Source of the DNA: an uncultured Prolixibacteraceae bacterium
GTDB lineage: Bacteria; Bacteroidota; Bacteroidia; Bacteroidales; FEN-979
Length of the DNA stretch: 64,000 nucleotides
Direction: 5' to 3'
NCBI GenBank assembly: GCA_964605775.1
Contig: CAZSDU010000001.1
Coordinates: 102,741-166,740 of the forward strand
Shown piece after piece: positions 14,936 through 46,268 of the stretch. The position numbers and the translations under genes are program-made. Under the pieces are notes generated by a model. The model ran no database searches. It was not told the DNA's origin and worked only from the letters and a program-made list of their open reading frames with translations. The number at the start of each line of letters is the position of its first letter. Position 1 is the first letter of the stretch.

Positions 14936-14958
14936 AATTCAGTTATTAGTGTTTTGAC

Positions 14959-14997
14959 ACAATATAGGGGCAACCCTGCGGCTTGCCCCTATATTGT
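14959..14997. terminator. perfect 15-bp stem-loop between the LTD and TBDR genes
   Basis: acaatataggggcaa / ttgcccctatattgt with 9-nt loop. Confidence 0.7.
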
Positions 14998-15021
14998 TTT
15001 TAACCATTTTCAATCATTCCT

Positions 15022-29526: not shown

Positions 29527-29542
29527 AATATCCAATGAAGGA

Positions 29543-32500
29543 TTAGTGGCTGACCGTGATTTTAACGGTACGGATACCTTGTGTGGTAGTGACTTTCACA
29601 AAGTAAACTCCGTTCATCAAAACAGAAACATTGACCTTGGCGGTTTTACTTTCAACATTTTGTTTAGTGTAAACCGTTTGTCCAAGATAATTCATCATTT
29701 CAATGTTGGTGATGTTATCACTGCTCTTAATGTTCACGACTTCAGTTGCCGGATTCGGGTAAACCGAGAAGTTGGTCGTAACCTGAGGATCTATACCAAG
29801 CACAACATCTGCCATAACAATGTTAGAAGCATCTGAGGTACATTCTGCAAATACTGAAGTGACATAATAATAATGCAAACCATATTCAACACCCATATCA
29901 ACATAGGTAGTATCCGTAACAACGGAAGTGTTGATCTTGTTGAATGTAATCTGGTTGTCGTCACTACGCCAGATATCATATCCCTGGAGAGAGGAAGCCG
30001 TTGGATTGTTCGGCATGATCACGCCACTACCGATATGACTGTAAGTATCCCCGCTGATATTGGAGAGCTCGGTAGTATTGTTGCCAGGTGTGCCGGTAAA
30101 TGGATTCTGTCCGGGAAGAATGTTGAAACCATTTGCACTTTTGCCATTGGTATAACCATTGGCCCTGATGGTAGCAACAGCCGGGGTTCCCAGATATTCA
30201 CCAAAGGTTTGCCATACGGATCCATCATACCTCATGCCATAATCGTCTGCAGCATAAGGTCCGTTATCGTCAACACCCATCCAATACGGTCTGGTTCCTG
30301 TATGGTTTGAATGAACCATACCATAGAAGGTACCGCTGAAATCGATGTTGGGAACCGGGATATTCTGCCATACATTGGGAACCTGCATTACCGGTGCCGA
30401 TGTTCCGATGAGGGTATAAGTATCATCAAAGACATCAATGGTAACCTGAGTTGCCCCGGTGGAAGAACCATCATAGTGGAATACATCAAAAGAAGTCAGG
30501 GTTCCGCTGCCACCGCTGGGGAGCATGAACATATTTCCAAACCATCTTTCTCCACTGGATGAACTCAGCCCGTTCTCGTAAGTGCCATCATCCCAGATGA
30601 TCTGGAAAGCAGTACTCGAAACACAAAGAGGGCCGGTCCATGACAGATAGACATCCTGGTCGGCAATATCATTTACCAGTAAATTCGTCGGTGGTGTACA
30701 AACGGCATAAACATGGATGTTATCCACATACCAGTGGAGCATGTCAATAGAGTTCTCTCCATTGGCGCGGAAACGAATCTTGAAGGCCTTGCCCATGGTG
30801 CCCTTGAGTTCGAAGTGCTGGCTGTTCCAGTCAACATCACCTTCATTGACGAATTCCGTTACTTTTTTCCAGGAACCGTTGGTGTATAATTCTACCGTTA
30901 GTTTTTCATCACCGGTTGCATTGCGGTCAAGAAGCTTATAGTCGAAGTCCAACCATATCTTGGCACAGGTATAAATTGCTGCGCTCAGGGTCGGGGATTC
31001 AATGCTTCTCGAATAATTGGTCAACAGTGAAGTAAAGGCCTGGAAGTCGGCTGAAGGCAATGGATTTCCAAAGCCAGTGCTGACCACCCAACCACCTTCA
31101 GTATTCCATTCATGAAATGTGAATGTTCCCTGATCCCATGGTTCGTAGAACGGTATGGGAATACCATAATTGATCGTTACTTCAACCGGTCCGGCTGCCA
31201 GTGAATTGTCATTCAGCGGCGGAATCGGGGCAACATCATAGTAACCCGTCACTTCATAGGAATATACTCCCGGATCCAGGAAATAATCATAATACTCAAG
31301 CGTATTGGGATTGGGTACATAACCTACCAAAGCTCCATCACGCCAGATATTGTATCCCAGCAAGGTCGGGGGAGAGGTCATCGGTGCACTCGGGGAGACA
31401 TCGGCTACAATCGTCTGGTCCATGCCAAGATTGATGGCGGCGCCAACCAATTGAGTCGGGTTCTGGCCCTGGGGCTTCTGGGTGGGATCCAATACCACCG
31501 TACTGCCGCCGTGACCTTTCTTGTCATATACAAATGCCGTGGCCCTTTGCAGGAAGGTACAGGGAGTATAGCCAAATACGTCGACTGCGCTCGCGAATAC
31601 CCCGTCATAGTTTGTCCAGGCGAGTCCATCAGGAGGTACCTGAGGTCCGCTGTTGTCATACATGAAGTAGTTCTTCACCGGGGTGGCTGATATATAATAA
31701 TCTACCAGCGCGTAGAAGGGTCCCGTAAACGGAATATCGTTTACGTTCACCGTTACCCAGTTCCCTGAAGGATAGGGGGCGCCTGTGTTGATAAACGGCG
31801 CCGACTGGCCGATCAGGTTTTCGGCTATATCATAAATGTATAGGATACAGCTCTGTGCAGATGAACTGCTGGTGGAGCTGAAATACATATCAAAGGATTT
31901 CAGTACGCCAGTGGTTGCGGCATCGATCGGGAATTTGTTACCCATCATGATCTGGTAACCGGCATTGATCGATACTCCGTTTTCTGCCGTTCCGTCGTCA
32001 TATACCCAGGTGACCAGGTGACCGCCTCCGCAATTCGGCTTCTCCCAGGTCAGGTAAGCCGTGCTTTCAATCGGCGTTCCCGTAAGTTCTGTCGGGGGAC
32101 AGAGGAACTTGGCCGTGAAAGTGGTGCATACCTGGGGTGAATATCCGCTTCCATAGACTGCTTCCACGCAGGCATTATAGGTGTTGCCATAAATCACTTC
32201 GCCCGGGGGAATATTGTAGGTAGTATCCGGGGTGAAGTGAAGTGCTCCATTCAGGTAGAAATTATAACCGTAAACACAGGGGTTAGGTCCGCTTACGGCA
32301 TCAACGCCGTACAACTGGATATTGTCAAGGTTCCAGTTGTTGATATCATAGGAGTCTTCGCCGGCAGCATGGAACCTGAATTTAAAGGTGTTGTTCACCT
32401 CATAGGGGGTGACATCCACTGCGATGGTCGTCCAGGCGATATTGCCAGTATTGGCATGGCTGTCAACTTCAACCCAGGTTGTCCCGTTCCAGAACTCCAC

Positions 32501-35095
32501 GGCCATGGTATTCAGGTTACTGGTACCATAATTGCTCAGGTAGAGGTCATAGACGAACAGGTGGGCCGGGGCTGCAGAGCCCTCAAGCACCTTGCTGGTA
32601 ATATACTGGTCGTAGCCCATGACTTCAGGACTCCAGTTGAACATGGCCGATGGAGCCGGGTGGCCTGTACCGGTGCTCACGCTCCAGTTTCCGCCATCAA
32701 CTGTCCAGCCGTTGGCGGTAAAGTTGCCACTTGCCCAGGCTTCATTGAAGAGAAGCTTCTTATTCCTGGGAGGAGACCAGCTTGCTTCAAGGGTTACACC
32801 ATCAACCATCAGGTTGGTGACCGGATCCTTGACATGCAAGGGCGATACATCAAAGGTTGAAGGACCGAAAATGGCTACATCCTGGGTGTAAAGATCATAG
32901 AAAATACGATCCACGATCAGGTGGTAATTGCCTTTCCATACATTGGTAAAGTTGACTTTACCCGTGGCATCGGTCGTGCCGGTATAAGTGGTATCCGGAA
33001 TATCAATGTTCTCCAGCGTGACAACCGTTCCTTCCAGAGGATCCGAAGCGCAGGTAAGAGTGACGTTGACCGTAACGTTGGTCGTCCAGTTCTTGCCCAA
33101 TATATTGGAGAAGATATAGTCTGACCAGCGGTTGCCGGTGTATTTGGCTTTCACGGCCCAGCGGTAAGCGCCATCGGGCAGGGAAGGCCAGCTATTGTCA
33201 ACGGTACTGTTAGTAGTCGGGGTAGAAACCGAAGTCCAGACAGCCGGATTGGTTTCTTCACCCGGGTGGAGACGAAAGACCTGATAGCCTATGAGTGCCG
33301 TGGGGGCATCAATGGGGCCGCCGAGTCCGTTCACCACGCAGCGCATCATAAAGTTGCCGTCGGCAGGTACCCAGGGGCCGCTGCCGGTCACAAATTGACT
33401 ATAGCTGCGAAGCTGGGTGGCTGTATTGTCAACAGCCAAACGGGCAGCTACCGAGGAGTTGCCTCCCTGGATCATCACCATATAGAAATTGCCCGAGTTG
33501 ATCACCACGCTGGGAAGCGTGAAGGTGTTCCAGCCAAATACGCTGGGCACTACATCCACGGGATCCCCTATGGGGCTGCCCGGAAGTCCGCCTGGGCCGG
33601 TGGCATCATAAAGCTGGACCTGGAAAGGAGCCAGATCTCCGATGGCCGGACTGCCCGGATAATCACTTTGTGCGCCAATGTTTATACTACCGCTTTTAAT
33701 GGTCACCGGGTAGTTCAGCGGGGTGAATTTCAATGCATTGAAATTCCCTTCTGCTGCCCATACCGTGGTAGTTTCTTTAACCCCGTCGTCATAGATCAGC
33801 TCATAGTCGCCAATGGGTTGTCCCCAGGTCAGCGCCACCTGTGTCGGCGGTGTGTTCAGCGTAGCTGTAAACGGTTGAATAGGTTTGTTCAGGGCTTCAC
33901 CCAGGGCGATGTTTACCGTTTGGGTAACACCCGGAGTAAAAGTATAATTACCTGAGAGGAAGTTCTCAAATCCGGCTTTGCTTACCGCGATCGGATAACT
34001 GCCACCGGGAAAGACCTGAAGGGAATAAGTTCCACCTTCGATAGAATAAGTAGTCAGTCCGTTCACCGTGATCTTAGCTCCTTTTACCGGTGCTCCATTG
34101 GCCGCATTGGTAATGGTTCCGTTAAGAATGGCCGGAGTCGGCGTCATGGTAAAGTTTTTGGTTGTGGTGGACCCGCTGACAATAACCGCAGTGCCTGAGT
34201 ATGGCATATAGCCTGCTAAGGTGGCATTGACCGTAGCCGTTCCGGCAGGAATACCGGTTTTGGTATAAACCCCAGAAGCATTGGTAGTGACCGGAGTAAG
34301 GGCATTCACGGTTACGGTTACTCCTGAGATTGGAGTACCTGTAAAGGTATTGGTAACCGTACCTGTTAAGGTTCCGCCGGGTCCTCCCGGCAGGGTGATA
34401 TTCCAGGTAGCCAGCACTTCTGCATCGCTTAAAGCCCGGTTGTATAAACGGAATTCATCCATCAGACTTCCTCCTGGCATACAGTAGGTAGTTGTTCCAT
34501 ACCCGCCAATCAGGAAGGGACCGGCGCCTGATATTGTTACAGCCGGTTGAGTTACGGGAGTCCCGGAAAGAACACCATTTTTAAAAACCCTGATCGAAGT
34601 TCCGGTATAGACAAAATGAACAACCACAGGCCCCGTTGAAACACCTGATACGACAACATCACTTAAACCTCCACCGCGAAGTAAGAGATTCCCTGCCCCA
34701 GCAGCGCCGTTCATAAAGCAACGGAAAGAAGTGGCGTTAATGTCACCAAAAAGATAGTTCAGATCGGTATTACTGGGAATCCCGTTCAACCACATCGAAA
34801 TGGTCCAACCGGTACTGGGCAGATTCGTAACCCAGTTAGTATTTAAGCGGTGTGAAGAGGAGGGATTAGTCGTTCCGACACCCTGCATGGCAGTGCTGAA
34901 CTGACCCGTACCACCAATGGTCAATCCTGAAAGGATAGCAGGATTAGTCCCTGTAGGAGGTGCGGAGGCATAATTCACCTGATTGCCGGCAGCGTTGAAG
35001 TTATAATACATCAACTCAGGAACATTCTGGGAGAATACTTCCATGGTCATAAATACCAGGAAAAACATCTGAATAATTTTGTACAATTGTTTCAT
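29543..35095 (-). CDS. large T9SS adhesin-like protein 1 (LamG-like head, carboxypeptidase-regulatory-like repeats, Fn3-like hosts with inserted domains, CTD)
   Basis: 1850 aa; signal peptide; WTISMWL...MDEFRLYNRALSD head; VYPNP CTD. Confidence 0.85.
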   Translation of the reverse strand: MKQLYKIIQMFFLVFMTMEVFSQNVPELMYYNFNAAGNQVNYASAPPTGTNPAILSGLTIGGTGQFSTAMQGVGTTNPSSSHRLNTNWVTNLPSTGWTISMWLNGIPSNTDLNYLFGDINATSFRCFMNGAAGAGNLLLRGGGLSDVVVSGVSTGPVVVHFVYTGTSIRVFKNGVLSGTPVTQPAVTISGAGPFLIGGYGTTTYCMPGGSLMDEFRLYNRALSDAEVLATWNITLPGGPGGTLTGTVTNTFTGTPISGVTVTVNALTPVTTNASGVYTKTGIPAGTATVNATLAGYMPYSGTAVIVSGSTTTKNFTMTPTPAILNGTITNAANGAPVKGAKITVNGLTTYSIEGGTYSLQVFPGGSYPIAVSKAGFENFLSGNYTFTPGVTQTVNIALGEALNKPIQPFTATLNTPPTQVALTWGQPIGDYELIYDDGVKETTTVWAAEGNFNALKFTPLNYPVTIKSGSINIGAQSDYPGSPAIGDLAPFQVQLYDATGPGGLPGSPIGDPVDVVPSVFGWNTFTLPSVVINSGNFYMVMIQGGNSSVAARLAVDNTATQLRSYSQFVTGSGPWVPADGNFMMRCVVNGLGGPIDAPTALIGYQVFRLHPGEETNPAVWTSVSTPTTNSTVDNSWPSLPDGAYRWAVKAKYTGNRWSDYIFSNILGKNWTTNVTVNVTLTCASDPLEGTVVTLENIDIPDTTYTGTTDATGKVNFTNVWKGNYHLIVDRIFYDLYTQDVAIFGPSTFDVSPLHVKDPVTNLMVDGVTLEASWSPPRNKKLLFNEAWASGNFTANGWTVDGGNWSVSTGTGHPAPSAMFNWSPEVMGYDQYITSKVLEGSAAPAHLFVYDLYLSNYGTSNLNTMAVEFWNGTTWVEVDSHANTGNIAWTTIAVDVTPYEVNNTFKFRFHAAGEDSYDINNWNLDNIQLYGVDAVSGPNPCVYGYNFYLNGALHFTPDTTYNIPPGEVIYGNTYNACVEAVYGSGYSPQVCTTFTAKFLCPPTELTGTPIESTAYLTWEKPNCGGGHLVTWVYDDGTAENGVSINAGYQIMMGNKFPIDAATTGVLKSFDMYFSSTSSSSAQSCILYIYDIAENLIGQSAPFINTGAPYPSGNWVTVNVNDIPFTGPFYALVDYYISATPVKNYFMYDNSGPQVPPDGLAWTNYDGVFASAVDVFGYTPCTFLQRATAFVYDKKGHGGSTVVLDPTQKPQGQNPTQLVGAAINLGMDQTIVADVSPSAPMTSPPTLLGYNIWRDGALVGYVPNPNTLEYYDYFLDPGVYSYEVTGYYDVAPIPPLNDNSLAAGPVEVTINYGIPIPFYEPWDQGTFTFHEWNTEGGWVVSTGFGNPLPSADFQAFTSLLTNYSRSIESPTLSAAIYTCAKIWLDFDYKLLDRNATGDEKLTVELYTNGSWKKVTEFVNEGDVDWNSQHFELKGTMGKAFKIRFRANGENSIDMLHWYVDNIHVYAVCTPPTNLLVNDIADQDVYLSWTGPLCVSSTAFQIIWDDGTYENGLSSSSGERWFGNMFMLPSGGSGTLTSFDVFHYDGSSTGATQVTIDVFDDTYTLIGTSAPVMQVPNVWQNIPVPNIDFSGTFYGMVHSNHTGTRPYWMGVDDNGPYAADDYGMRYDGSVWQTFGEYLGTPAVATIRANGYTNGKSANGFNILPGQNPFTGTPGNNTTELSNISGDTYSHIGSGVIMPNNPTASSLQGYDIWRSDDNQITFNKINTSVVTDTTYVDMGVEYGLHYYYVTSVFAECTSDASNIVMADVVLGIDPQVTTNFSVYPNPATEVVNIKSSDNITNIEMMNYLGQTVYTKQNVESKTAKVNVSVLMNGVYFVKVTTTQGIRTVKITVSH
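30699..33928. repeat. 3,230-bp direct repeat, copy 1
   Basis: Matches 36556-39785 at offset 5857; translations and all shadow ORFs are identical; boundaries read by eye. Confidence 0.92.
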
Positions 35096-35150
35096 AGATT
35101 TGGTTTTTTTTAGATAGCTAAAATATAATGGATCAACTAATTCGATAATT

Positions 35151-35168
35151 AATTGATATATATAGGGA
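35151..35168. promoter_or_regulatory. 18-bp upstream motif shared by T9SS genes 1 and 2
   Basis: aattgatatatataggga, 56 nt from the gene 1 ATG; identical at 40912-40929. Confidence 0.55.
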
Positions 35169-35345
35169 GGGCGTTTCGTACATACCTGTTTTTCAGTATT
35201 TTAAAAATTGTGCCAAATATACATAAAAAAATAATTCAAATAAAAAAATAATTTTGGGAATATTTTCCAGAAATTAACTTCAGGGAAAGGGAAGGAAAGA
35301 GAATAGAACTCCCTACGATTTTTGAAATGGCTGAGGGGTGAGCAT

Positions 35346-35380
35346 AAAAAAAGAGGGCGGCCAATGGTCGCCCTCTTTTT
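35346..35380 (-). terminator. intrinsic terminator of T9SS gene 2
   Basis: aaaaaagagggcggcc-aat-ggtcgccctcttttt. Confidence 0.85.
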
Positions 35381-35399
35381 AGAAATTTCCAATGAAGGA

Positions 35400-38300
35400 T
35401 TAGTGGCTTACAGTGATTTTAACGGTACGGATACCCTGTGTAGTAGTAACTTTCACAAAGTAAACTCCGTTCATCAAACCGGTAACATTAATCTTTGCTG
35501 TCTTGTTATCAACATTCTGTTTTGTGTAAACAGTCTGTCCAAGATAGTTCATGATTTCAATGTTGGTGATGTTATCGCTGCTCTTGATGTTCACGACTTC
35601 AGTTGCCGGATTCGGGTAAACTGAGAAGTTGGTCGTTACTTGAGGATCTATTCCAATGATAACGTCAACAGTAACAGTATCCGAGGTCATGGACATGGTG
35701 CATTCCGGATACACGGAGAGTACATAATAATTATACTCACCGGCATTCAGGTCAAGATCCATATAGGTGGTATCCGTAACAAGTGCAGTATTAATCTTGT
35801 TGAATTCCGTTCCGTTAGGATCCATACGATAGACATCATATCCTGCCAGTGCGCTGGGTTGGTTAGAAGTAACCTGAGCAGCATGCTGGTTGGTTTGGAG
35901 GTATCCGTTAAAGGTATAAGAAGGATTGACGTTGCGTGTCATGGCCTGAAGTTCTGAAACAGGAACCTGACGCGGGGAAACGAGTTCTCCCTTGCCAAAT
36001 TCTGTTCTGATCCAGAGGTTCTGGAGGAAGTCACCAATACCAGAGGTGGCAAATCCGGAATAATCAGGTAAAGGACCATAGACAGAAACGCCATCCGGAC
36101 CGCTGTTGTCAGCAGAGAAGCAAGGATAGGCATCGGTTGAAGAATTGCTCAGAGGTTCAAGCATGATACCAATCATACCACCTCCGGAGCCATCGGTTTC
36201 TTCAAGAGAAACACCATTTTCCCAGATATCATCGCCGGTTGTGGTCAAAGGACCAAGAACAGCAATCTCGGTATAGGTATTCCAATCCACGATATGGATG
36301 TTATACTGCCAGGTGCCCATTGTGCCCCAGGAAGCATGATGGAAGTCAATCATTTCAAGGGTAGCATCAGGATATGCAGCCAGATCATATACCACGCCGT
36401 AAGCATAGTCATAATTCTGATAATAACCATTATCCGGATCGCCATCCCATTGCCATAATTTAACCAGAACGCCTGAATTACCGCAATTCGGTGATTTCCA
36501 GTCGAGTTTCACATTCATACCCTGTGCATCGCCAGCAAGATCCTGTGCAGGTTGGCAAACGGCATAAACATGGATGTTATCCACATACCAGTGGAGCATG
36601 TCAATAGAGTTCTCTCCATTGGCGCGGAAACGAATCTTGAAGGCCTTGCCCATGGTGCCCTTGAGTTCGAAGTGCTGGCTGTTCCAGTCAACATCACCTT
36701 CATTGACGAATTCCGTTACTTTTTTCCAGGAACCGTTGGTGTATAATTCTACCGTTAGTTTTTCATCACCGGTTGCATTGCGGTCAAGAAGCTTATAGTC
36801 GAAGTCCAACCATATCTTGGCACAGGTATAAATTGCTGCGCTCAGGGTCGGGGATTCAATGCTTCTCGAATAATTGGTCAACAGTGAAGTAAAGGCCTGG
36901 AAGTCGGCTGAAGGCAATGGATTTCCAAAGCCAGTGCTGACCACCCAACCACCTTCAGTATTCCATTCATGAAATGTGAATGTTCCCTGATCCCATGGTT
37001 CGTAGAACGGTATGGGAATACCATAATTGATCGTTACTTCAACCGGTCCGGCTGCCAGTGAATTGTCATTCAGCGGCGGAATCGGGGCAACATCATAGTA
37101 ACCCGTCACTTCATAGGAATATACTCCCGGATCCAGGAAATAATCATAATACTCAAGCGTATTGGGATTGGGTACATAACCTACCAAAGCTCCATCACGC
37201 CAGATATTGTATCCCAGCAAGGTCGGGGGAGAGGTCATCGGTGCACTCGGGGAGACATCGGCTACAATCGTCTGGTCCATGCCAAGATTGATGGCGGCGC
37301 CAACCAATTGAGTCGGGTTCTGGCCCTGGGGCTTCTGGGTGGGATCCAATACCACCGTACTGCCGCCGTGACCTTTCTTGTCATATACAAATGCCGTGGC
37401 CCTTTGCAGGAAGGTACAGGGAGTATAGCCAAATACGTCGACTGCGCTCGCGAATACCCCGTCATAGTTTGTCCAGGCGAGTCCATCAGGAGGTACCTGA
37501 GGTCCGCTGTTGTCATACATGAAGTAGTTCTTCACCGGGGTGGCTGATATATAATAATCTACCAGCGCGTAGAAGGGTCCCGTAAACGGAATATCGTTTA
37601 CGTTCACCGTTACCCAGTTCCCTGAAGGATAGGGGGCGCCTGTGTTGATAAACGGCGCCGACTGGCCGATCAGGTTTTCGGCTATATCATAAATGTATAG
37701 GATACAGCTCTGTGCAGATGAACTGCTGGTGGAGCTGAAATACATATCAAAGGATTTCAGTACGCCAGTGGTTGCGGCATCGATCGGGAATTTGTTACCC
37801 ATCATGATCTGGTAACCGGCATTGATCGATACTCCGTTTTCTGCCGTTCCGTCGTCATATACCCAGGTGACCAGGTGACCGCCTCCGCAATTCGGCTTCT
37901 CCCAGGTCAGGTAAGCCGTGCTTTCAATCGGCGTTCCCGTAAGTTCTGTCGGGGGACAGAGGAACTTGGCCGTGAAAGTGGTGCATACCTGGGGTGAATA
38001 TCCGCTTCCATAGACTGCTTCCACGCAGGCATTATAGGTGTTGCCATAAATCACTTCGCCCGGGGGAATATTGTAGGTAGTATCCGGGGTGAAGTGAAGT
38101 GCTCCATTCAGGTAGAAATTATAACCGTAAACACAGGGGTTAGGTCCGCTTACGGCATCAACGCCGTACAACTGGATATTGTCAAGGTTCCAGTTGTTGA
38201 TATCATAGGAGTCTTCGCCGGCAGCATGGAACCTGAATTTAAAGGTGTTGTTCACCTCATAGGGGGTGACATCCACTGCGATGGTCGTCCAGGCGATATT

Positions 38301-40850
38301 GCCAGTATTGGCATGGCTGTCAACTTCAACCCAGGTTGTCCCGTTCCAGAACTCCACGGCCATGGTATTCAGGTTACTGGTACCATAATTGCTCAGGTAG
38401 AGGTCATAGACGAACAGGTGGGCCGGGGCTGCAGAGCCCTCAAGCACCTTGCTGGTAATATACTGGTCGTAGCCCATGACTTCAGGACTCCAGTTGAACA
38501 TGGCCGATGGAGCCGGGTGGCCTGTACCGGTGCTCACGCTCCAGTTTCCGCCATCAACTGTCCAGCCGTTGGCGGTAAAGTTGCCACTTGCCCAGGCTTC
38601 ATTGAAGAGAAGCTTCTTATTCCTGGGAGGAGACCAGCTTGCTTCAAGGGTTACACCATCAACCATCAGGTTGGTGACCGGATCCTTGACATGCAAGGGC
38701 GATACATCAAAGGTTGAAGGACCGAAAATGGCTACATCCTGGGTGTAAAGATCATAGAAAATACGATCCACGATCAGGTGGTAATTGCCTTTCCATACAT
38801 TGGTAAAGTTGACTTTACCCGTGGCATCGGTCGTGCCGGTATAAGTGGTATCCGGAATATCAATGTTCTCCAGCGTGACAACCGTTCCTTCCAGAGGATC
38901 CGAAGCGCAGGTAAGAGTGACGTTGACCGTAACGTTGGTCGTCCAGTTCTTGCCCAATATATTGGAGAAGATATAGTCTGACCAGCGGTTGCCGGTGTAT
39001 TTGGCTTTCACGGCCCAGCGGTAAGCGCCATCGGGCAGGGAAGGCCAGCTATTGTCAACGGTACTGTTAGTAGTCGGGGTAGAAACCGAAGTCCAGACAG
39101 CCGGATTGGTTTCTTCACCCGGGTGGAGACGAAAGACCTGATAGCCTATGAGTGCCGTGGGGGCATCAATGGGGCCGCCGAGTCCGTTCACCACGCAGCG
39201 CATCATAAAGTTGCCGTCGGCAGGTACCCAGGGGCCGCTGCCGGTCACAAATTGACTATAGCTGCGAAGCTGGGTGGCTGTATTGTCAACAGCCAAACGG
39301 GCAGCTACCGAGGAGTTGCCTCCCTGGATCATCACCATATAGAAATTGCCCGAGTTGATCACCACGCTGGGAAGCGTGAAGGTGTTCCAGCCAAATACGC
39401 TGGGCACTACATCCACGGGATCCCCTATGGGGCTGCCCGGAAGTCCGCCTGGGCCGGTGGCATCATAAAGCTGGACCTGGAAAGGAGCCAGATCTCCGAT
39501 GGCCGGACTGCCCGGATAATCACTTTGTGCGCCAATGTTTATACTACCGCTTTTAATGGTCACCGGGTAGTTCAGCGGGGTGAATTTCAATGCATTGAAA
39601 TTCCCTTCTGCTGCCCATACCGTGGTAGTTTCTTTAACCCCGTCGTCATAGATCAGCTCATAGTCGCCAATGGGTTGTCCCCAGGTCAGCGCCACCTGTG
39701 TCGGCGGTGTGTTCAGCGTAGCTGTAAACGGTTGAATAGGTTTGTTCAGGGCTTCACCCAGGGCGATGTTTACCGTTTGGGTAACGCCTGAAGCAAAAGT
39801 ATAATTACCTGAGAGGAAGTTCTCGAATCCGGCTTTGCTTACCGCGATCGGATAACTACCCGGAGTGTAAACGTTCAAAGAGTAAACACCACCTTCAATA
39901 GAATAGGTAGAAAAACCATTCACTGTAATCTTGGCTCCTTTAACCGGTGCGCCATTGGCCGCGTTGGTAACAATACCATTCACGATACCCGGCAAGGGGT
40001 AAAGGGCAAAATTCAATGTTGCGGTTCCACCTGAGGGAACGGTGGTACTCTTGGTCTGTGGTTCATAGAGGGCTTTAGCAGCAGTGGCAGAAACCAGGCC
40101 TGAAGGAACAGTCATGGTATAATTACCTGATGCATTGGTTGTAGCTACCGTTGTTCCGACTGTAACCGTGGCGCCCACCAGGGGTGCATTGGTGTTGGCA
40201 TCCTTGACCTGGCCGGTCAGTGTTCCCGGAGGAATAGCCAATTGGTACAAACGGATATTTTCACGGACAGAAGCCATGTAAACAGTACCGGTAAGGGAAC
40301 AACCTGTTCCGTAATCGGTATAAGCATAATTGGCCTGTGTGGTGTTGGCCGTTCCATTTACAGAAAACGAGGTACCCCATACAGCGTCTGCATTATCATG
40401 GCAGAAATTCAGCTTAATGTTGGAGGTGCCATTCCATGGAAATGGAGTTGTCAGTGTAATGATCTGCCATCCTGTTCCGGAAAAGGCGAAACTGGCCGAC
40501 TCATAGACTATCGTCCAGCCTGCTTCATCAAAAGCAGTAGTAACAACAGCATCCGTAGTATTCTTCATGGAAATTTTGAAGTTCACCAGTGCAAATCCAC
40601 TGGCGGTGGTGTTGTCGAATGCCAATTTGGTGATGTTCCCAGCTGTTAAAGTGGGAGTCATTTCACTGGCAAGAAAGATTACCTGATGACGGTGATCGGC
40701 CCAGGTTGAATAGAAGGGGTAAGAGGTCGTTGAGGTCCCAGTCCCGATCTGAACATACACTTCCTGCGCCAAACCTGTCTTCGCAAATAGCATCATCGAC
40801 ACAAAAAAGAGCAGCATCGACTTTGCAAGCAGTTTGGTAACATTTTTCAT
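35400..40850 (-). CDS. large T9SS adhesin-like protein 2 (different head and tail, shared core)
   Basis: 1816 aa; signal peptide; head QEVYVQIGTGTSTTSYPFY; VYPNP CTD. Confidence 0.85.
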   Translation of the reverse strand: MKNVTKLLAKSMLLFFVSMMLFAKTGLAQEVYVQIGTGTSTTSYPFYSTWADHRHQVIFLASEMTPTLTAGNITKLAFDNTTASGFALVNFKISMKNTTDAVVTTAFDEAGWTIVYESASFAFSGTGWQIITLTTPFPWNGTSNIKLNFCHDNADAVWGTSFSVNGTANTTQANYAYTDYGTGCSLTGTVYMASVRENIRLYQLAIPPGTLTGQVKDANTNAPLVGATVTVGTTVATTNASGNYTMTVPSGLVSATAAKALYEPQTKSTTVPSGGTATLNFALYPLPGIVNGIVTNAANGAPVKGAKITVNGFSTYSIEGGVYSLNVYTPGSYPIAVSKAGFENFLSGNYTFASGVTQTVNIALGEALNKPIQPFTATLNTPPTQVALTWGQPIGDYELIYDDGVKETTTVWAAEGNFNALKFTPLNYPVTIKSGSINIGAQSDYPGSPAIGDLAPFQVQLYDATGPGGLPGSPIGDPVDVVPSVFGWNTFTLPSVVINSGNFYMVMIQGGNSSVAARLAVDNTATQLRSYSQFVTGSGPWVPADGNFMMRCVVNGLGGPIDAPTALIGYQVFRLHPGEETNPAVWTSVSTPTTNSTVDNSWPSLPDGAYRWAVKAKYTGNRWSDYIFSNILGKNWTTNVTVNVTLTCASDPLEGTVVTLENIDIPDTTYTGTTDATGKVNFTNVWKGNYHLIVDRIFYDLYTQDVAIFGPSTFDVSPLHVKDPVTNLMVDGVTLEASWSPPRNKKLLFNEAWASGNFTANGWTVDGGNWSVSTGTGHPAPSAMFNWSPEVMGYDQYITSKVLEGSAAPAHLFVYDLYLSNYGTSNLNTMAVEFWNGTTWVEVDSHANTGNIAWTTIAVDVTPYEVNNTFKFRFHAAGEDSYDINNWNLDNIQLYGVDAVSGPNPCVYGYNFYLNGALHFTPDTTYNIPPGEVIYGNTYNACVEAVYGSGYSPQVCTTFTAKFLCPPTELTGTPIESTAYLTWEKPNCGGGHLVTWVYDDGTAENGVSINAGYQIMMGNKFPIDAATTGVLKSFDMYFSSTSSSSAQSCILYIYDIAENLIGQSAPFINTGAPYPSGNWVTVNVNDIPFTGPFYALVDYYISATPVKNYFMYDNSGPQVPPDGLAWTNYDGVFASAVDVFGYTPCTFLQRATAFVYDKKGHGGSTVVLDPTQKPQGQNPTQLVGAAINLGMDQTIVADVSPSAPMTSPPTLLGYNIWRDGALVGYVPNPNTLEYYDYFLDPGVYSYEVTGYYDVAPIPPLNDNSLAAGPVEVTINYGIPIPFYEPWDQGTFTFHEWNTEGGWVVSTGFGNPLPSADFQAFTSLLTNYSRSIESPTLSAAIYTCAKIWLDFDYKLLDRNATGDEKLTVELYTNGSWKKVTEFVNEGDVDWNSQHFELKGTMGKAFKIRFRANGENSIDMLHWYVDNIHVYAVCQPAQDLAGDAQGMNVKLDWKSPNCGNSGVLVKLWQWDGDPDNGYYQNYDYAYGVVYDLAAYPDATLEMIDFHHASWGTMGTWQYNIHIVDWNTYTEIAVLGPLTTTGDDIWENGVSLEETDGSGGGMIGIMLEPLSNSSTDAYPCFSADNSGPDGVSVYGPLPDYSGFATSGIGDFLQNLWIRTEFGKGELVSPRQVPVSELQAMTRNVNPSYTFNGYLQTNQHAAQVTSNQPSALAGYDVYRMDPNGTEFNKINTALVTDTTYMDLDLNAGEYNYYVLSVYPECTMSMTSDTVTVDVIIGIDPQVTTNFSVYPNPATEVVNIKSSDNITNIEIMNYLGQTVYTKQNVDNKTAKINVTGLMNGVYFVKVTTTQGIRTVKITVSH
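36556..39785. repeat. 3,230-bp direct repeat, copy 2
   Basis: Matches 30699-33928. Confidence 0.92.
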
Positions 40851-40911
40851 AATGTTAGATTTAAGTGAATATTAATTGATTATTAGAAGAAAATATGGGG
40901 ATCAATTTTGC

Positions 40912-40929
40912 AATTGATATATATAGGGA
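40912..40929. promoter_or_regulatory. 18-bp upstream motif, second copy
   Basis: aattgatatatataggga, 62 nt from the gene 2 ATG. Confidence 0.55.
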
Positions 40930-41143
40930 AATTTGTCTCATACAATTAAAAATGTCAATTATTCAGAAATTTTTTCTAAATAATTGATTATCTTAGTTTT
41001 AAAAATTATTCTGGAGAAGAACAACATTGATTTTCTACTCCGACAGCAAATATAAAACAAATTATATTATCCCATGCAAATTTTTTCGTTTTTTCTTTCT
41101 TTTTGCCTCAAGTGGATTTTTTATAATTTTGCAAAAAAAAAAC

Positions 41144-41533
41144 ATGAAAATTATCAGACCGCTGCTTATTATTCTCTCCTGCGTGATCATATTTGATGGC
41201 TGCAGTTCCCTGAAGAACACCAATAAAAAAACCGTGATCGGTTACTGGAAAAAATACCAGGGTAATGCTGAAGGGGAAAAAACTGCTGCTTTAAAGGGAG
41301 AATTGACTGCCATGGAATTCAGGGCAGATAAAACGGCCACCTTAACTTATACGGACAGGGAATTAAATGGTAAATGGGCACTTGACAATACCGGAACGGG
41401 CATCTTATTTACTGAAACAAACACCAAAACTCCCTTTGAAATACGACTGGCCCGGGTGGCAGATGATGCTTTGGGAATCAATGAAGATGTTGAAGGAGGG
41501 GAAAGGCTAATAAAATTCCTCAGGGAAAAATAA
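41144..41533 (+). CDS. small lipoprotein, lipocalin-like
   Basis: MKIIRPLL...FDGC lipobox; IGYWK, FRADKTATL, GKW; start ATG at 41144. Confidence 0.65.
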   Translation: MKIIRPLLIILSCVIIFDGCSSLKNTNKKTVIGYWKKYQGNAEGEKTAALKGELTAMEFRADKTATLTYTDRELNGKWALDNTGTGILFTETNTKTPFEIRLARVADDALGINEDVEGGERLIKFLREK

Positions 41534-41664: not shown

Positions 41665-42192
41665 ATGAAAAATAATACCACCCTATTACTCCTTGTATTT
41701 TCCGCCATGATTATGCTGGGGTCCTGTTCCGTTTCGAATATGAACAAGCAGTTGATCCTGGGTCGCTGGGAAGTTGTCAAAACAGGTCCATTTATCCAGA
41801 AAAATACCGCGGCTGAATCGCTGCAGGCCGGCGACAGCCTTACAGCCTTAGCGCTGAATCCGGACGTTCAGGCAGAAATGGAACGCCAGGGAATGACCAA
41901 TTACAAGAACATCGCCCGTGACACCAAAAAGAAACAGCGCCAGGTCATGCGGGCAAGTCTTTTTTCGAGTGTAGTTTTTGATGCGGATCAGACCGCAACC
42001 TTATATTTCGGGAAAAAGGGATTTCCTGCCCAATGGAAAATGAACCGTAGGGGAAATAAAATCATGATGAGGGATACTGCTTCCTCGATCAAAGCTACCC
42101 TCACGGTTGTTCTTCTGGATTCCCTCAACCTGAAAACGATCAATAAATTCCCGGAGGGAAAGCTGGAAAAAACATACCTCAGGCAGAAGTAA
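41665..42192 (+). CDS. small lipoprotein, lipocalin-like
   Basis: MLGSC lipobox; LGRWE, FDADQTATL, AQW. Confidence 0.65.
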   Translation: MKNNTTLLLLVFSAMIMLGSCSVSNMNKQLILGRWEVVKTGPFIQKNTAAESLQAGDSLTALALNPDVQAEMERQGMTNYKNIARDTKKKQRQVMRASLFSSVVFDADQTATLYFGKKGFPAQWKMNRRGNKIMMRDTASSIKATLTVVLLDSLNLKTINKFPEGKLEKTYLRQK

Positions 42193-42196
42193 TCCG

Positions 42197-45100
42197 CTAA
42201 TATTTGATCATTGGAATACAGTACATCCCGGCATTGCCGGTGGTGAAAACTTTCATCAGGTAATGACCCTCCGACAGGTTCTCTAAGGGGATGATCGTCT
42301 CCAACACAGCATTCAGGGAAAAATCGGCTACTTTTAATCCCAGGACATTGATCAGGAGTATCCTGTTCATGGGCATCGTGGATTTCACCCGGATCTGATC
42401 CCGGGCGGGATTGGGGTAAACAGTGAGTGGTCCATCATACTGCTTTCCCAAGGAGGTAATCACATCCACTTCAATGGTATCGGAAGCTGTGGCTTCGTTG
42501 CAGGTATTGCCGGTAGTCTGAATATAGTAACGATACAAGCCGTAAGGGAGTCTGAAGTCAATGAAGGCCGTATCGGTCAAAGGCTGGGAATTGGCTTTGA
42601 CATAAACCCCGCCGGCAGGGTCCTGGCGGTAAACGTCATATAAGATCGGAGGGGTAGTAAATTCCAGTTTTTGTCCCCCCAGGGTACAGTCGTCTATCCC
42701 CCAGTAATACCACAGACCCTGTCCGCCGTTGTCGGTGGCATGCCAGGCCAGGTCAACCACATCCCCCAGGTAGGATGACATATTAATCATATAAGGATGT
42801 TGCCATTGATTATACCCGCCGGGTCCCGGGAAGGGAGGAAGGGCGGAGAGGTCCATCAGTACATCCCAGCTATTGCCCTGGTCGGTGGAAACCTTGACAT
42901 AGTAATGGTCATCATGGGCTGATCCCTGATAGGCGAGACTCCAGAAGCTGAGGTTGCCACCCACATAGACATTTTTAGCGATAAGCCATTCGTCCTGATG
43001 GTTATAGTCCCAGTATAATCCTGCGGAATAATTCCCGGAATGCACGCCAATCGGTGGGGAGATACCTGTATGCGTCCAGCTTGCCCCGGCATTATGCGTG
43101 ATCTGAGACCAGCCCGGGGGAGGAAATTCTTCTCCCTCAAACCCTTGCTGAAGAATATTTCCTCCTCCGCTGCATTGGGGAGGGCTCCAGGAGAGATGAA
43201 TATCATCACCCCAGGCTTCGCCGTAAGGATCAGTGGGTGGCAAACAAACAGCATAAACAGCAATATTATCCACCAACCACGTACTGATGTTGTCGGAATT
43301 ATTTCCGCCGGCAATGAAGCGAAAACGAAAGCCTTTTCCTTTCACCACGCTGATATCGATATGCTGAGTAATCCATTCGATATTGCCCGAATTGCTGAAT
43401 TCGGCTTTTTGATGCCAGGTGTTATTGTAAAAAACCTCTGCGGTCAGCTTTTCATTTCCGTTAGCTGTTTTATCCAGGAGTTTCAGGTCGAAATCCATCC
43501 AAATTTTTGCGCAGTTATCCGGTGTTGCATCCAGGACGGGACTTTCGAGGGCAAAGGAATAAAGCTGATGGTTGGGAGATCCCGTAAAAACGGCTGAGGG
43601 AAGAGGGTTTCCCTCCTCCTGACTGATCACCCAGTTTCCCTGCTGACCGTTGAAACGCCATTCATTATAGGTAAAAGACCCCTGATTCCAGGGTTCATTA
43701 AAAGGCAGTAACCTTCCGTAATGAATCATGACCGATACCGGTCCAGCGGGCATCGAATGGTCTTCCTGACCGGGATGTCCATAAGTGGTAAGGTCATATA
43801 AAGCATCCACCGTATAGGAATAGTTGCCGGGTTCCAGATTGACATCATAAAAGGAGAGGTTATCGTTCCCCGGAAGATAGATAAGAAAACTGCCGTTTCT
43901 ATAGATGTTGTATCCTTTGATTCCTTCGGGCATTACCGGGCCTGAATCCGAGGGCATGGTAGGTTCGTGCCAGCTCAGGTAAACGGTATTTTCAAGGATT
44001 TCGGCATTCAGTTCGGTGGGAGGCCAGAGAAAATGTGACGTTAATGCAGCGCAGACCTGTTCGGAATACCCGCTGGTATAGATGGCCCTGACGCATGCCT
44101 GATAAGTGGAATCGTAACGGACCAGGGATCCGTCTATGGTATAATGGTTATCGTTGACCAGGGCAAGCAGGGTGTTATCAAGATAAAAATTATAGCCAAA
44201 AATACAGGGAGCCAGGAGGTGGGCGGATTCTGAAGCCGTGATTAGGATATTATCAATATACCAGCCGTTGATCTGGTAAGAATCTTGCCCGAATGCCCGG
44301 AAACGGATGTTAAAGTGGGTGTTGGAATAGGCAGAAATATCGATGACATCGGTGGTCCAGGGGATGCTGCCGCCGGCATTGGTCCATACTTTCAGGGTAT
44401 GCCATGAAATTCCGTCGTAAATCTCTATGGCCATCTGGTTGAGCGCCGCCGTGGAATAATTATCCAGGTTGATTTCGTATTGCAGGGTCATGATGGGACT
44501 GTTCTGACCTTCTACCATCCGGCTGGTCAGCGATTGTTCATAGTTGGGAACAGGAGGGGACCAGCTAAAAAACGCGGAGGGTGCAGGATGACCTGCCGTC
44601 ATGGAAATCCTCCAGTTGATCCCTCCTTCTCTTACCCAGCCCCCGCTCAGAAAATCGCCGCTGTTAAAGTTTTCCTGCAGCAGGGGAAGGGAATAAAACG
44701 GTTCATCCCAGACCGCGTGAAGGCTGACACTATCCACGACCAGGTTAGTGGGCGGGGATTTGATCTGAAGCAGAATGATATCGAGGGATAAAGGGGTATT
44801 GACAGAGCAAAACCCTGAATAGGTAAGATAACCAAACTTCATCGCTTTGACTTCATAGGACCCTTTCCATACGCCGGGGAAAACGACCTGGCCGCTGGGA
44901 TTGCAAACCCCCTGGTAAACGGTATCCTGATAGACCTGATTCGTCAGGGTGATGAGGGTTCCTTCGGGGTCGGCTGCTGCACAGCTCAGGCTAAGGTTGA
45001 TGTTAACCGGAGCTGTCCAGCATTTTCCCAGTACATTAGAGAAAGTCGGTTCTGACCATCGGTTACCTGTATAACCCGTCTTTACACACCAGCGGTGAGG

Positions 45101-46168
45101 GCCGCAGGGCAGGGCCGGCCAGGAAGGGTCCACCGTCTCGGTGATGTTCACGCTACCCAGGAAAACCCAAGCCATGGGGTTCAGTTCTTCACCCTGATGC
45201 AACCTCCATAATTGATAGCCTATCAAGCTTTGTTCGCCGGAAGTGAGGTCCAAAGGCCCGCCAGTACCTGATACCAGGGCACGGATCATGAAATTCCCTG
45301 CTGCCGGTACCCAGGGTTGGTTTCCCGTGACTGCTTTAAAATAACTGCGGTATTGAGGGAAAGTCACATCAATGGCCAGTCCGGCTGCATTGGGAGCATT
45401 TCCACCCTGTATCATGGCAATGAAGAAGTTCCCTGCTGCAAGGCTTACCGGAGACGGAAAGGTAAAATCTATCCATCCCAAAGCGGCGGGGATCACATCA
45501 AAGGGACCCGCGATCACATTTCCGGGTGTACCTCCCGTTCCGTTTCCATCCAGGATGATCACCTGGAAAGGGACCAGGGGATTACTTCCCGGTGGATAGT
45601 TGGAGGCGTTTCCAATATTGATTTTACATCCTTTAACCAGAACAGGATATCCCACTGGCGTAAATTTCACGGCATTCATGTTTCCCGCCTGGGACCATAC
45701 GGTAAAATTATCCTGCAGGCCATCGTCATAGATCAGTTCGTATGTTCCTTCGGGTTGGCCCCAGGAGAGATAGACTCTCTGGTTGGCCGTATCCATCACT
45801 GCCGATAATAGCGGTGAAGGGTTGGGGGTTTCCCATAAAGTAATATTGAGGGTAATGATGTTCCCGGACTGAAAGGTTACGGGATCAGAAGTGAAAGGGT
45901 CAAAGCCGGCTTTTGATGCGTTCACCGGAAAAACGCCTAAGGGTTGAATGTTAAGACTGTAAACTCCGGCGGTAACCGAGTACGTGGAAACACCGTTGAC
46001 CGTTATCCTGGCACCGATCACGGGATGTCCGGTGGTGGCATGGGTTACGGTACCCACCAGGGTGGCGGAGGACAGAAATCCGGTTTGCGAAAAAAGAGGA
46101 AAACCAGTTAAAAACAAAAGTCCCCAAAAAAGGATCTGAAAATAATATTTTATTTGTGATGGATTCAT
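42197..46168 (-). CDS. large T9SS adhesin-like protein 3 (headless paralog with cleaved-adhesin/choice-of-anchor-J-like tail)
   Basis: Clear homology to the core of genes 1/2 (ELIYDDG..AGNMNAVKFTP, KYTGNRWS, GKCWT); tail QGFEGEEFPPPGW...QDEWLI...YYVKVSTDQGNSW; VYPNP CTD; start ATG at 46168. Confidence 0.82.
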   Translation of the reverse strand: MNPSQIKYYFQILFWGLLFLTGFPLFSQTGFLSSATLVGTVTHATTGHPVIGARITVNGVSTYSVTAGVYSLNIQPLGVFPVNASKAGFDPFTSDPVTFQSGNIITLNITLWETPNPSPLLSAVMDTANQRVYLSWGQPEGTYELIYDDGLQDNFTVWSQAGNMNAVKFTPVGYPVLVKGCKINIGNASNYPPGSNPLVPFQVIILDGNGTGGTPGNVIAGPFDVIPAALGWIDFTFPSPVSLAAGNFFIAMIQGGNAPNAAGLAIDVTFPQYRSYFKAVTGNQPWVPAAGNFMIRALVSGTGGPLDLTSGEQSLIGYQLWRLHQGEELNPMAWVFLGSVNITETVDPSWPALPCGPHRWCVKTGYTGNRWSEPTFSNVLGKCWTAPVNINLSLSCAAADPEGTLITLTNQVYQDTVYQGVCNPSGQVVFPGVWKGSYEVKAMKFGYLTYSGFCSVNTPLSLDIILLQIKSPPTNLVVDSVSLHAVWDEPFYSLPLLQENFNSGDFLSGGWVREGGINWRISMTAGHPAPSAFFSWSPPVPNYEQSLTSRMVEGQNSPIMTLQYEINLDNYSTAALNQMAIEIYDGISWHTLKVWTNAGGSIPWTTDVIDISAYSNTHFNIRFRAFGQDSYQINGWYIDNILITASESAHLLAPCIFGYNFYLDNTLLALVNDNHYTIDGSLVRYDSTYQACVRAIYTSGYSEQVCAALTSHFLWPPTELNAEILENTVYLSWHEPTMPSDSGPVMPEGIKGYNIYRNGSFLIYLPGNDNLSFYDVNLEPGNYSYTVDALYDLTTYGHPGQEDHSMPAGPVSVMIHYGRLLPFNEPWNQGSFTYNEWRFNGQQGNWVISQEEGNPLPSAVFTGSPNHQLYSFALESPVLDATPDNCAKIWMDFDLKLLDKTANGNEKLTAEVFYNNTWHQKAEFSNSGNIEWITQHIDISVVKGKGFRFRFIAGGNNSDNISTWLVDNIAVYAVCLPPTDPYGEAWGDDIHLSWSPPQCSGGGNILQQGFEGEEFPPPGWSQITHNAGASWTHTGISPPIGVHSGNYSAGLYWDYNHQDEWLIAKNVYVGGNLSFWSLAYQGSAHDDHYYVKVSTDQGNSWDVLMDLSALPPFPGPGGYNQWQHPYMINMSSYLGDVVDLAWHATDNGGQGLWYYWGIDDCTLGGQKLEFTTPPILYDVYRQDPAGGVYVKANSQPLTDTAFIDFRLPYGLYRYYIQTTGNTCNEATASDTIEVDVITSLGKQYDGPLTVYPNPARDQIRVKSTMPMNRILLINVLGLKVADFSLNAVLETIIPLENLSEGHYLMKVFTTGNAGMYCIPMIKY

Positions 46169-46268
46169 ACGCTCCCTACAAAAATACAAAAAGCAGGGTT
46201 GAAAAAGACTTTTTCATGCTTTTAAGGTTCTTTTTTTTCGGAAAAACTTGCCAGAATGAAAATTTTTA

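Follow-up and report, generated by a model that had tools for sequence, protein, structure and literature searches.

The tandem genes g1 and g2 encode large cargo proteins of the type IX secretion system (T9SS) and are located in a 64,000-nucleotide stretch of contig CAZSDU010000001.1 from an uncultured Prolixibacteraceae bacterium, the whole of which is referred to here as the window. Both genes are on the minus strand, g1 (1850 aa) at 29543..35095 and g2 (1816 aa) at 35400..40850, and were recognized from their open reading frames (ORFs) and from Pfam and NCBIfam matches. They have different 5' parts (head-1 and head-2) and different 3' parts (tail-1 and tail-2), and between these they share a core of 3,230 bp that is the same in both genes to the last nucleotide. 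The identity of this core is very probably kept by recurrent intrachromosomal gene conversion between direct repeats, i.e., by the concerted evolution of part of a gene.

Core copy 1 in g1 (30699..33928, minus strand) matches core copy 2 in g2 (36556..39785, minus strand) with zero mismatches at an offset of 5,857 bp. The match was followed along the offset-5857 diagonal, with a repeat finder as seed, and just one mismatch-free run is present at this offset. A chance origin of a perfect run of 3,230 bp is impossible. The first-pass annotation of this DNA had given the same coordinates, the same mismatch-free match and the same 5,857-bp figure, and exact alignment along the diagonal showed all of these to be right. 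In protein terms, the codon alignment places the core at aa 390-1466 of g1 and aa 356-1432 of g2, corresponding to 1,077 aa.

On the gene-5' (head) side of the core, identity falls off gradually, at 95, 70 and 50% per 100 bp beyond the core, and the homology past the core runs at 85%, then 64%, then 50%. The shoulder next to core copy 1 (33929..34113, minus strand) is partly homogenised, being approximately 85% identical to 39786-39970 with many synonymous differences, and the 50 codons ahead of the core are 76% identical between g1 and g2. On the gene-3' (tail) side, identity ends abruptly at 30698/36555, just past the codons for ...HVYAVC, and the approximately 270 codons downstream are 25-30% identical between the two genes. 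This edge is the end of the second MAM-like domain of the core and lies ahead of an FN3-like domain. Tail-1 (29820..30698, minus strand), which consists of the FN3-like domain, the third 'YDDG' beta-sandwich domain and a linker, is equal in length to tail-2 (35677-36555), with an amino acid identity of 25-30% and a longest common nucleotide word of 13 nt. The protein identity of g1 and g2 in the heads and in the tails ahead of the C-terminal domain (CTD) is 25-35%.

Similarity returns at the CTD, which in g1 occupies the end of the gene (29543..29819, minus strand). It forms a repeat of 293 bp with 87% nucleotide identity at the same 5,857-bp offset, 29527-29819 versus 35384-35676, including the stop codon and the 16 nt that follow it, and the last approximately 100 codons have an amino acid identity of approximately 82%. 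That synonymous differences are abundant in the homologous flanks, as had been pointed out earlier, is borne out by 19 such differences in the 50 codons on the head side and 10-11 per 50 codons in the CTD. The distance from the core edge through the stop codon is 1,156 nt in both genes (29543-30698 and 35400-36555) despite several indels, and the same holds for the related lineage L001 described below. Because of these equal tails, the core repeat and the CTD repeat are in a single register. The equal lengths may be a coincidence or may be due to a length constraint. The GC content at third codon positions (GC3) is 0.585 in the core, 0.44-0.48 in the heads and tails, 0.47-0.55 in neighbouring genes and 0.547 in g3, the unconverted homolog of the core located upstream of g2. 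GC-biased conversion is possible, and the g3 homolog is already at a GC3 of 0.547 without conversion.

The second lineage, L001, is the nearest public genome, a metagenome-assembled genome (MAG; CAYSAU010000003.1) that is also labelled 'uncultured Prolixibacteraceae bacterium'. Over 15.3 kb it aligns collinearly with the window, with a nucleotide identity of 92% and the same gene order of g3, g2, g1 and an ABC-F gene. The two cores of L001 are identical to each other over 3,167 bp in the same interval, and this identical tract ends approximately 60 bp short of the tail edge. Between the window core and the L001 core, 262 of the 3,167 sites differ (91.7% identity), of which approximately 200 are synonymous and 61 non-synonymous, giving a synonymous divergence (dS) of 0.33 and a ratio of non-synonymous to synonymous divergence (dN/dS) of 0.075. 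Outside the core it is the orthologs that are closer, with heads and tails that are 90-99% identical between orthologs and 25-60% between paralogs. Paralogs that are more alike than orthologs inside a tract, with the reverse outside it, are the defining signature of concerted evolution. Since L001 has its own identical pair of cores, which has diverged from that of the window, at least one homogenisation must have occurred in each lineage after their split. The earlier proposal that the core was homogenised by gene conversion after the copies had diverged is therefore strongly supported, as it is seen independently in the window and L001 lineages and also in the tract-end and patch polymorphism described below. 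It is likewise strongly supported that the conversion is recurrent, rather than one event. In the CTD, orthologs are 94-97% identical and paralogs about 90%, and because the orthologs are the closer ones there, the CTD region looks like an older conversion tract. Purifying selection acts on both genes, with a dN/dS of about 0.08 (0.07-0.09 between the window and L001 in the heads, core and tails of each gene).

The locus has also been followed in metagenomes, for which Logan contigs of ten runs were placed on it and k-mer depth was used, at low depths (3-10x for the patch calls). Near-identical sequence is present in freshwater, sludge, wastewater, sediment and 'food' metagenomes. The read-depth check over the core that had been asked for in the first-pass annotation gave a core at approximately twice the depth of the flanks in runs X1, X2, X3, X6 and X9. 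The depth of the core versus the flanks is 9.6 versus 3.3-6.1 in X1, 7.6 versus 2.5-4.8 in X2, 8.3 versus 3.1-4.8 in X9 and about 17-26 versus 6-9 in X3; the core depth is 6.7-6.9 in X6, and the ratio in X5 is about 1.3x. Contigs cross the tail-1/core and tail-2/core junctions, the latter in X3, X4 and X5, and other contigs connect head-1 with tail-2 across the intergenic region. Two 100-nt contigs at single depth represent the two head branches. The doubled core depth and the junction contigs indicate that a two-gene tandem with a double-copy core exists in nature, beyond one assembly. Every Logan contig that carries the neighbouring ABC-F gene ends within the g1 CTD, and these contigs give no information on the arrangement.

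The strains in these runs are nearly identical to the window in the flanks and diverge from it in the core. In X1, 2 of 4,623 flank sites and 18 of 2,706 core sites differ (Fisher p = 1e-6), and in X2 these numbers are 2 of 5,468 and 42 of 2,606 (Fisher p = 8e-19), so that core divergence is 15- to 45-fold above that of the flanks. The core differences of X1 and X2 are clustered in patches. The patch at 30839-30899 (14 differences) is in neither window copy. In X1 it is carried by a contig spanning 30699-30936 (14 differences, 1x) and in X5 by a contig spanning 30782-31012 (12 differences, 1x), both apparently joined to tail-2. In X9 the contig with this patch is at 2x depth, and its start coincides exactly with the core edge, 30699. 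A second patch, 33770-33853 (8 differences), is found at single depth beside the window-like allele in X1 and X2 and is linked to head-2 alleles in a transcript contig of X18. A third, 32975-33005, accounts for half of the depth in X1 and X6 and for all of it in X2 and X9. The tract ends vary as well: the identical tract of X1 reaches 34000, 72 bp further head-ward than in the window, with g1 alleles at 39786-39825 at 2x depth. Ongoing interlocus conversion is expected to give just such a picture, with tract ends that vary among strains and a given variant in both copies, in one or in neither.

The origin of the variants has been considered as well. Matches to L001 alleles are found at 10 of 47 and 11 of 31 tested sites. 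In X2, the patch 33207-33251 (= 39064-39108) holds approximately 20 substitutions together with a compensated 1-nt insertion and deletion in 45 nt; it remains in frame, changes NPAVWTSVSTPTTNS to TPLVWNSVAVTSATN and is carried by a double-depth contig. The patch marks a hypervariable loop of the core in a strain that is identical elsewhere, and no donor for it was found in the window or L001-L003 at 12 or fewer mismatches. Since some variants are L001 alleles and one patch is without a local donor, new core alleles seem to be imported from other strains and then passed to the second copy. The paralog g3 was considered as a donor of the variant patches and rejected, as its longest common word with the core is 14 nt and the 33207-33251 patch has no match in the window or L001-L003.

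Taken together, the explanation that accounts best for these observations is one in which g1 and g2 are functional, separately transcribed tandem genes, with heads and tails that represent old and distinct module types. Homology-dependent conversion between the direct repeats, presumably of the RecA type, keeps the 3.2-kb middle identical. Conversion tracts stop where nucleotide homology collapses, which is abrupt on the tail side, at a domain boundary, and graded on the head side, where the gradient looks like the sum of older tracts with differing end points. Core alleles that vary between otherwise identical strains are most simply explained by allelic exchange followed by spread to the second copy. 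The longest common nucleotide words are 13 nt beyond the tail edge and 14 nt between g3 and the core, versus 32 nt in the head shoulder and 35 nt in the CTD. The abrupt tail edge and the exclusion of g3 can be explained by the fact that the tails and g3, with words of at most 14 nt, offer strand exchange no usable homology. In this explanation, RecA dependence, the direction of single events and the function of the proteins are the inferred parts.

Homologs of the locus have been observed in other lineages. A metagenome scan with the single core protein gave no match, and a profile-based scan (alignment A1) gave 71 distant metagenome loci with 40-56% amino acid identity. The usual layout consists of a g3-like gene, one or more small lipoprotein genes on the other strand, one 'big' gene and the ABC-F gene. 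A complete Bacteroidales MAG chromosome (L002) has a single big gene with g1-like ends. The idea that g1 is the ancestral gene, which was derived from L002, has been withdrawn, as in other lineages the single-copy gene beside ABC-F most often carries head-2. Tandem pairs in which the core is more alike than the ends are present in other lineages likewise. In the L030 pair the amino acid identity is 22-26% in the heads, 82-99% in the core, 43-47% in the tail and 87% in the CTD, with 84% nucleotide identity over 4,081 bp; the pairs of L031, L026, L009 and L061 are 81-85% identical over 1.9-4.1 kb, and L010 and L033 have repeats of 92-96% that are interrupted by contig ends. The number of tandem pairs is a lower bound, since pairs with perfect repeats would mostly fail to assemble.

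Heads and tails are combined in different ways in these relatives. Head-2 with tail-1 is found in L009_1067 (57%/57%) and L029_12386 (44%/44%), a head-2-like head with tail-2 in L031_20730 (tail 56%) and in L071 and L072 (51%), and head-1 in L010, L020 and L051 (54-57%). These combinations would fit a long-term reassortment of modules around a shared core, of which three out of four combinations at 44-57% identity are no proof. Other expansions are seen in L017/L021, L013, L022 and L061, either as an extra 1850-aa gene upstream of the g3-like gene, approximately 25% identical to the downstream one, or as a series of two to three g3-like genes. In general, the locus is a hotspot for the gain of paralogs.

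Among the other explanations, the one that survives best is that the core is kept as a recombination substrate for adaptive surface variation, in which crossing over would turn a cell with two genes into one with a head-2/tail-1 chimera or with three genes, and back. This recombinase-free route to varying a surface protein is the one that the first-pass annotation had put forward. The geometry of this crossover had been described correctly in the first-pass annotation: 5,857 bp would be lost, head-2/core/tail-1 would be left, and the excised circle would carry the core, head-1, the spacer and tail-2. Any RecA-proficient cell recombines such direct repeats at some low rate, and it is established knowledge that a 3.2-kb perfect direct repeat with copies 5.9 kb apart will do so. 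Tandem copy number also differs between lineages, as do the head/tail combinations (head-2/tail-1 in L009_1067 and L029_12386, head-2-like/tail-2 in L031_20730, head-1 with another tail in L010). However, the relatives with other combinations are 44-57% identical and represent ancient events, not recent deletion products, and finding three of four combinations is no proof of recombination. Purifying selection has retained both genes since the window and L001 split (dS about 0.3), and there is no sign of a regulated or selected rate. In the short reads of X1 and X2, the middle segment has no depth deficit relative to the outer flanks, and no support was found for a crossover that is frequent or used. 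The PCR for excised circles that had been proposed cannot succeed, since excision through identical repeats creates no junction that is not already there. Adaptive variation through crossover is regarded as unlikely.

Two further explanations are both very improbable. The first is an assembly artefact, in which the copies differ or only one gene exists, and a single consensus has been written twice. It is favoured by the fact that the L001 contig is a SPAdes contig (NODE_75), in which a loop of repeat, spacer and repeat is resolved with identical copies by construction. The doubled core depth argues against it, as do at least four of these runs that hold both tail/core junctions, both head branches or head-1/intergenic/tail-2 contigs. 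Where copies differ near the edges, they are resolved (X1, X2, X5, X18 and the last 60 bp of L001), which makes the identity of the window copies up to both edges informative; also, a single 2x contig in X9 runs to the exact edge at 30699. A few hidden SNPs in the interior would still leave the paralogs at about 99% or more, versus 91.7% for the orthologs. The second is a single recent event, either a fresh duplication or a domain swap into an existing paralog, with no ongoing process. Zero differences in 3,230 bp are indeed what a very recent event would leave. However, the identical core pair of L001 is 8.3% off that of the window, so that each lineage must have been homogenised at least once; strains with identical flanks differ in their tract ends and patch states; and the CTD and the head-side shoulder resemble older tracts.

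Extreme purifying selection on the nucleotides themselves, by an embedded RNA or overlapping genes, could be suggested by the long plus-strand ORFs that overlap the core (32237-32860 and 33266-33955), but it is refuted by the 262 mostly synonymous differences between the orthologous cores, which mean that the sequence is free to change and that only the copies within a genome stay alike. A diversity-generating retroelement (DGR) or an invertase was rejected as well, given that there is no reverse transcriptase or recombinase, that inverted repeats are absent and that the changes are not adenine-specific.

Several points weigh against recurrent gene conversion as the explanation. No read spans the whole core, and the interior identity rests on assembly in the window and in L001 alike; assemblers that resolve such loops from short reads necessarily write the same copy twice, and small bubbles may have been popped in the Logan contigs. 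The calls of one-copy versus two-copy patches were made at the low depths given above and could be mimicked by a mixture of two strains, and the variant contig of X1 is joined to tail-2 by 5 nt only. RecA dependence is assumed, with indirect support from the lack of other recombination machinery nearby. In addition, the domain and fold matches from which the function of the proteins was derived are weak (pLDDT 54; Foldseek E of about 0.01).

With regard to the proteins themselves, g1 consists of a signal peptide, a Laminin_G_3 head (aa 90-227), three CarboxypepD_reg domains, the core, tail-1 and a type-A CTD, and g2 of a signal peptide, head-2 (aa 1-205), three CarboxypepD_reg domains, the core, tail-2 and a type-A CTD. 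An exact look-up of the g2 protein gave no record. Laminin_G_3 is found in the g1 head only, and head-2 has no match to a known family in Pfam or in a PDB sequence search. The core contains FN3-like and CarboxypepD_reg domains, two MAM/choice-of-anchor-J-like domains and two 'YDDG' beta-sandwich domains; each protein has three copies of the latter, the third being in the variable tail. The N-termini, MKQLYKIIQMFFLVFMTMEVFSQ/NV in g1 and MKNVTKLLAKSMLLFFVSMMLFAKTGLAQ/EV in g2, are typical Sec signal peptides as judged by eye, without a predictor. The type-A CTD of the T9SS is located at the extreme C-terminus of both proteins and was identified with PF18962 (Por_Secre_tail; 49.3 bits for g1 and 51.8 bits for g2, cut-off 27) and TIGR04183 (41 and 43.5 bits, cut-off 23). 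PDB sequence searches matched the CTD, weakly, to chains 8glj_D and 8glk_D, and apart from the CTD they matched the carboxypeptidase-D-like domain only. In five segments (head-2, both tails and the core), no Pfam match to Cleaved_Adhesin (PF07675), DUF2436 or peptidase C25 was found at E <= 1.

Structure models were made for two of these parts. The single-sequence AlphaFold2 model of head-2 has a predicted local distance difference test (pLDDT) score of 34 and is of no use. The model of the 'YDDG' domain, built from five internal copies, is marginal (pLDDT 54, predicted template modelling (pTM) score 0.59), and in Foldseek it resembles the jelly-rolls of carbohydrate-binding modules CBM6/32/36/51, discoidin and MAM, weakly (E approximately 0.01-0.1, template modelling (TM) score 0.3-0.4), which hints at a glycan-binding-like beta-sandwich. 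The products of g1 and g2 are probably large, T9SS-secreted, beta-sandwich-rich proteins of the cell surface that bind ligands or glycans in an adhesin-like manner. Most likely, the head and the last 'YDDG' domain set the specificity, with the core as a common stalk.

The window as a whole is ordinary chromosome, with genes for Era, Mfd, phosphofructokinase and seryl-tRNA synthetase, polysaccharide and fatty-acid genes and one tRNA, and within these 64 kb no recombinase, reverse transcriptase, transposase or inverted repeat was found. The shorter paralog g3 (1330 aa; 42197..46189, minus strand) is located upstream of g1 and g2 and has a choice-of-anchor-J domain and a CTD. It is 48% identical in amino acids to the first two thirds of the core, with a longest common nucleotide word of 14 nt, and is outside the conversion. 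Between g2 and g3, two small paralogous lipoprotein genes, 41027-41533 and 41665-42192 (plus strand; MKIIRPLLIILSC... and MKNNTTLLLLVFSAMIMLGSC...), are divergently oriented. Neither has a Pfam match, and homologs occupy the same position in many loci of the family, so they may functionally be part of the locus. Another T9SS-linked cluster of three genes is present at 9514-16044 (minus strand), in which a TonB-dependent receptor (12056-14935) lies between a phospholipase D (PLD)-like nuclease/phospholipase that has DUF5689 and a CTD (9514-11961) and a protein that has a lamin-tail domain and a CTD (15022-16044). The porK/L/M/N, sov/sprA and porU/V genes are absent from the 64-kb window, and its two further CTD proteins (9514-11961 and 15022-16044) are consistent with a T9SS organism.

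Both genes have their own putative transcription signals. A Bacteroidetes-type -7 box, TATATTTG, is present upstream of each, and an intrinsic-terminator-like hairpin (AAAAAGAGGGCG-ACCATTGGC-CGCCCTCTTTTTTT; 35345..35379, minus strand) was found just 3' of the g2 stop codon by reading the sequence; the automated terminator scan overlooked it, its loop being 9 nt. This hairpin after g2 suggests that g1 and g2 are two separate transcription units. Metatranscriptome contigs on tail-2 are present in four runs (X18, X25, X26 and X27), and RNA contigs of X18 also lie on tail-1, the core and head-2 and reach 87 nt beyond the g2 start on its upstream side, with one of them spanning 40261-40937; RNA coverage of head-2 was examined in one RNA run, X18. 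Both g1 and g2 are transcribed, and neither is a silent cassette. Contigs on the g2 tail (35587-36465) occur in all four runs and contigs on the g1 tail (29969-30450) are clear in X18 alone, and the g1 head at 34132-34743 is without an RNA contig. The expression of g2 may be higher than that of g1, for which contig depth is a poor measure. One RNA contig of X18 has six G-to-A differences within 19 nt (31913-31931), which are not L001 alleles and could be a strain allele or have another cause.

The regions upstream of both genes also share a structured leader. In g2 (40851..41052, minus strand) the -7 box is followed by a leader of approximately 190 nt with three hairpins (HP1-HP3), the third of which is in the motif span 40928-40897. 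In g1 (35096..35215, minus strand) the -7 box is followed by a leader that keeps HP3 only, with the CCCTATATATATCAATT motif (35167-35130) in an extended hairpin with an 11-bp stem. The motif CCCTATATATATCAATT-GNAA-AATTGATCC is found upstream of g1, g2 and approximately 40 relatives, including L001 and L002, and the full leader of approximately 190 nt, with the conserved -7 box and three hairpins, upstream of g2 and 22 relatives. Its order is the -7 box, HP1 and HP2 with covariation, the near-invariant CCCTATATATATCAATT-GNAA-AATTGATCCCC (HP3), TAATAACYTAAA and ATG. In HP3, the compensatory change ATCAATA/TATTGAT is seen in L030, L031, L048 and L067. In alignment A2, 86% of the cells pair, versus 36-53% with the partners slid; 15 of the 27 pairs have changes on both sides, and the observed covariation score was reached by 0 of 500 shuffles. 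The leader has no Rfam match, and an RNA contig covers its motif. It looks like a candidate for an undescribed cis-regulatory RNA of this family of T9SS cargo genes, or it is possibly an operator palindrome. This conserved, structured leader is perhaps a more original lead than the conversion itself.

A broader scheme is also conceivable but unlikely. The core would then be no passive by-product but a selected 'portable homology region' with which a population reassorts old head and tail modules, imports foreign core alleles from other strains, copies them to the second gene and occasionally collapses or expands the array, to a head-2/tail-1 chimera or to three-gene states. This would be a recombinase-free cassette system for T9SS surface proteins that recurs in L009, L026, L030 and L031 and is co-regulated via the shared structured 5' leader RNA.

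The closest known parallel is found in Porphyromonas gingivalis, in which rgpA, kgp and hagA contain identical repeats within and between T9SS adhesin genes, with modular rearrangement and allelic exchange between strains (PMC5266723, Front Microbiol 2017;8:48). These repeats break short-read assemblies, and the rearrangement and exchange have been attributed to homologous recombination and gene conversion (PMC5266723). As in that system, g1 and g2 encode Bacteroidota surface proteins with a T9SS CTD and have long identical repeats in paralogous genes. However, they lack Cleaved_Adhesin, DUF2436 and peptidase C25, so that the likeness to gingipains and HagA proposed in the first-pass annotation stands as an analogy of mechanism and not as membership of the family. 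Also, the P. gingivalis genes are dispersed and share repeated cassettes of approximately 160 aa, whereas g1 and g2 are adjacent in tandem and share one bounded 3.2-kb tract of 1,077 aa with many domains; and P. gingivalis is a host-associated pathogen, whereas the host of g1 and g2 is an environmental, uncultured relative of the Prolixibacteraceae. T9SS cargo genes beyond Porphyromonas thus also evolve as mosaics, with exchangeable modules on a shared scaffold, and the surface-protein repertoires of environmental Bacteroidota diversify by such mosaics. Such genes get mis-assembled in MAGs, and orthology and strain typing based on them can mislead.

Diversity in surface proteins is generated differently in programmed systems such as invertase shufflons, DGRs and antigenic variation from silent cassettes, as in pilE/pilS. 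The outcome, surface-protein variation through DNA rearrangement, would be similar, but at g1 and g2 there is no nearby recombinase or reverse transcriptase, there are no inverted repeats or promoterless cassettes, and the variant patches alter all four bases and not adenines only. The PE/PPE genes of Mycobacterium tuberculosis have been described as hotspots of gene-conversion diversity in surface and antigen families (preprint PMC13061034). In both cases, conversion between paralogs gives patchy, clustered polymorphism far above the strain background. The differences are the phylum and the secretion system, the net effect within the genome, which here is the homogenisation of two expressed genes, and the lack of any sign of immune-driven diversifying selection (dN/dS about 0.08).

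Concerted evolution of paralogs is known from tufA and tufB of Salmonella. In prokaryotes, concerted evolution by gene conversion has been described for a limited set of genes, e.g., 26 genes (PMC6053082, Commun Biol 2018;1:12), and for rRNA operons (PMC8022953). The locus described here shares with these cases that paralogs within a genome are nearer to each other than orthologs, and that the process is homology-dependent, non-reciprocal and persists across speciation. In the known cases, whole genes whose products ought to be alike are homogenised, whereas g1 and g2 are homogenised in the middle only and their ends are different, old modules, so that the two products differ, whether by design or because this is tolerated. 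The locus is a clean, classical case of concerted evolution, and the mechanism is not new. As a natural example of bacterial concerted evolution of part of a gene it is unusually clean, with sharp tract limits in two lineages, and the population snapshots, with the same patch in neither, one or both copies, appear to catch the conversion underway.

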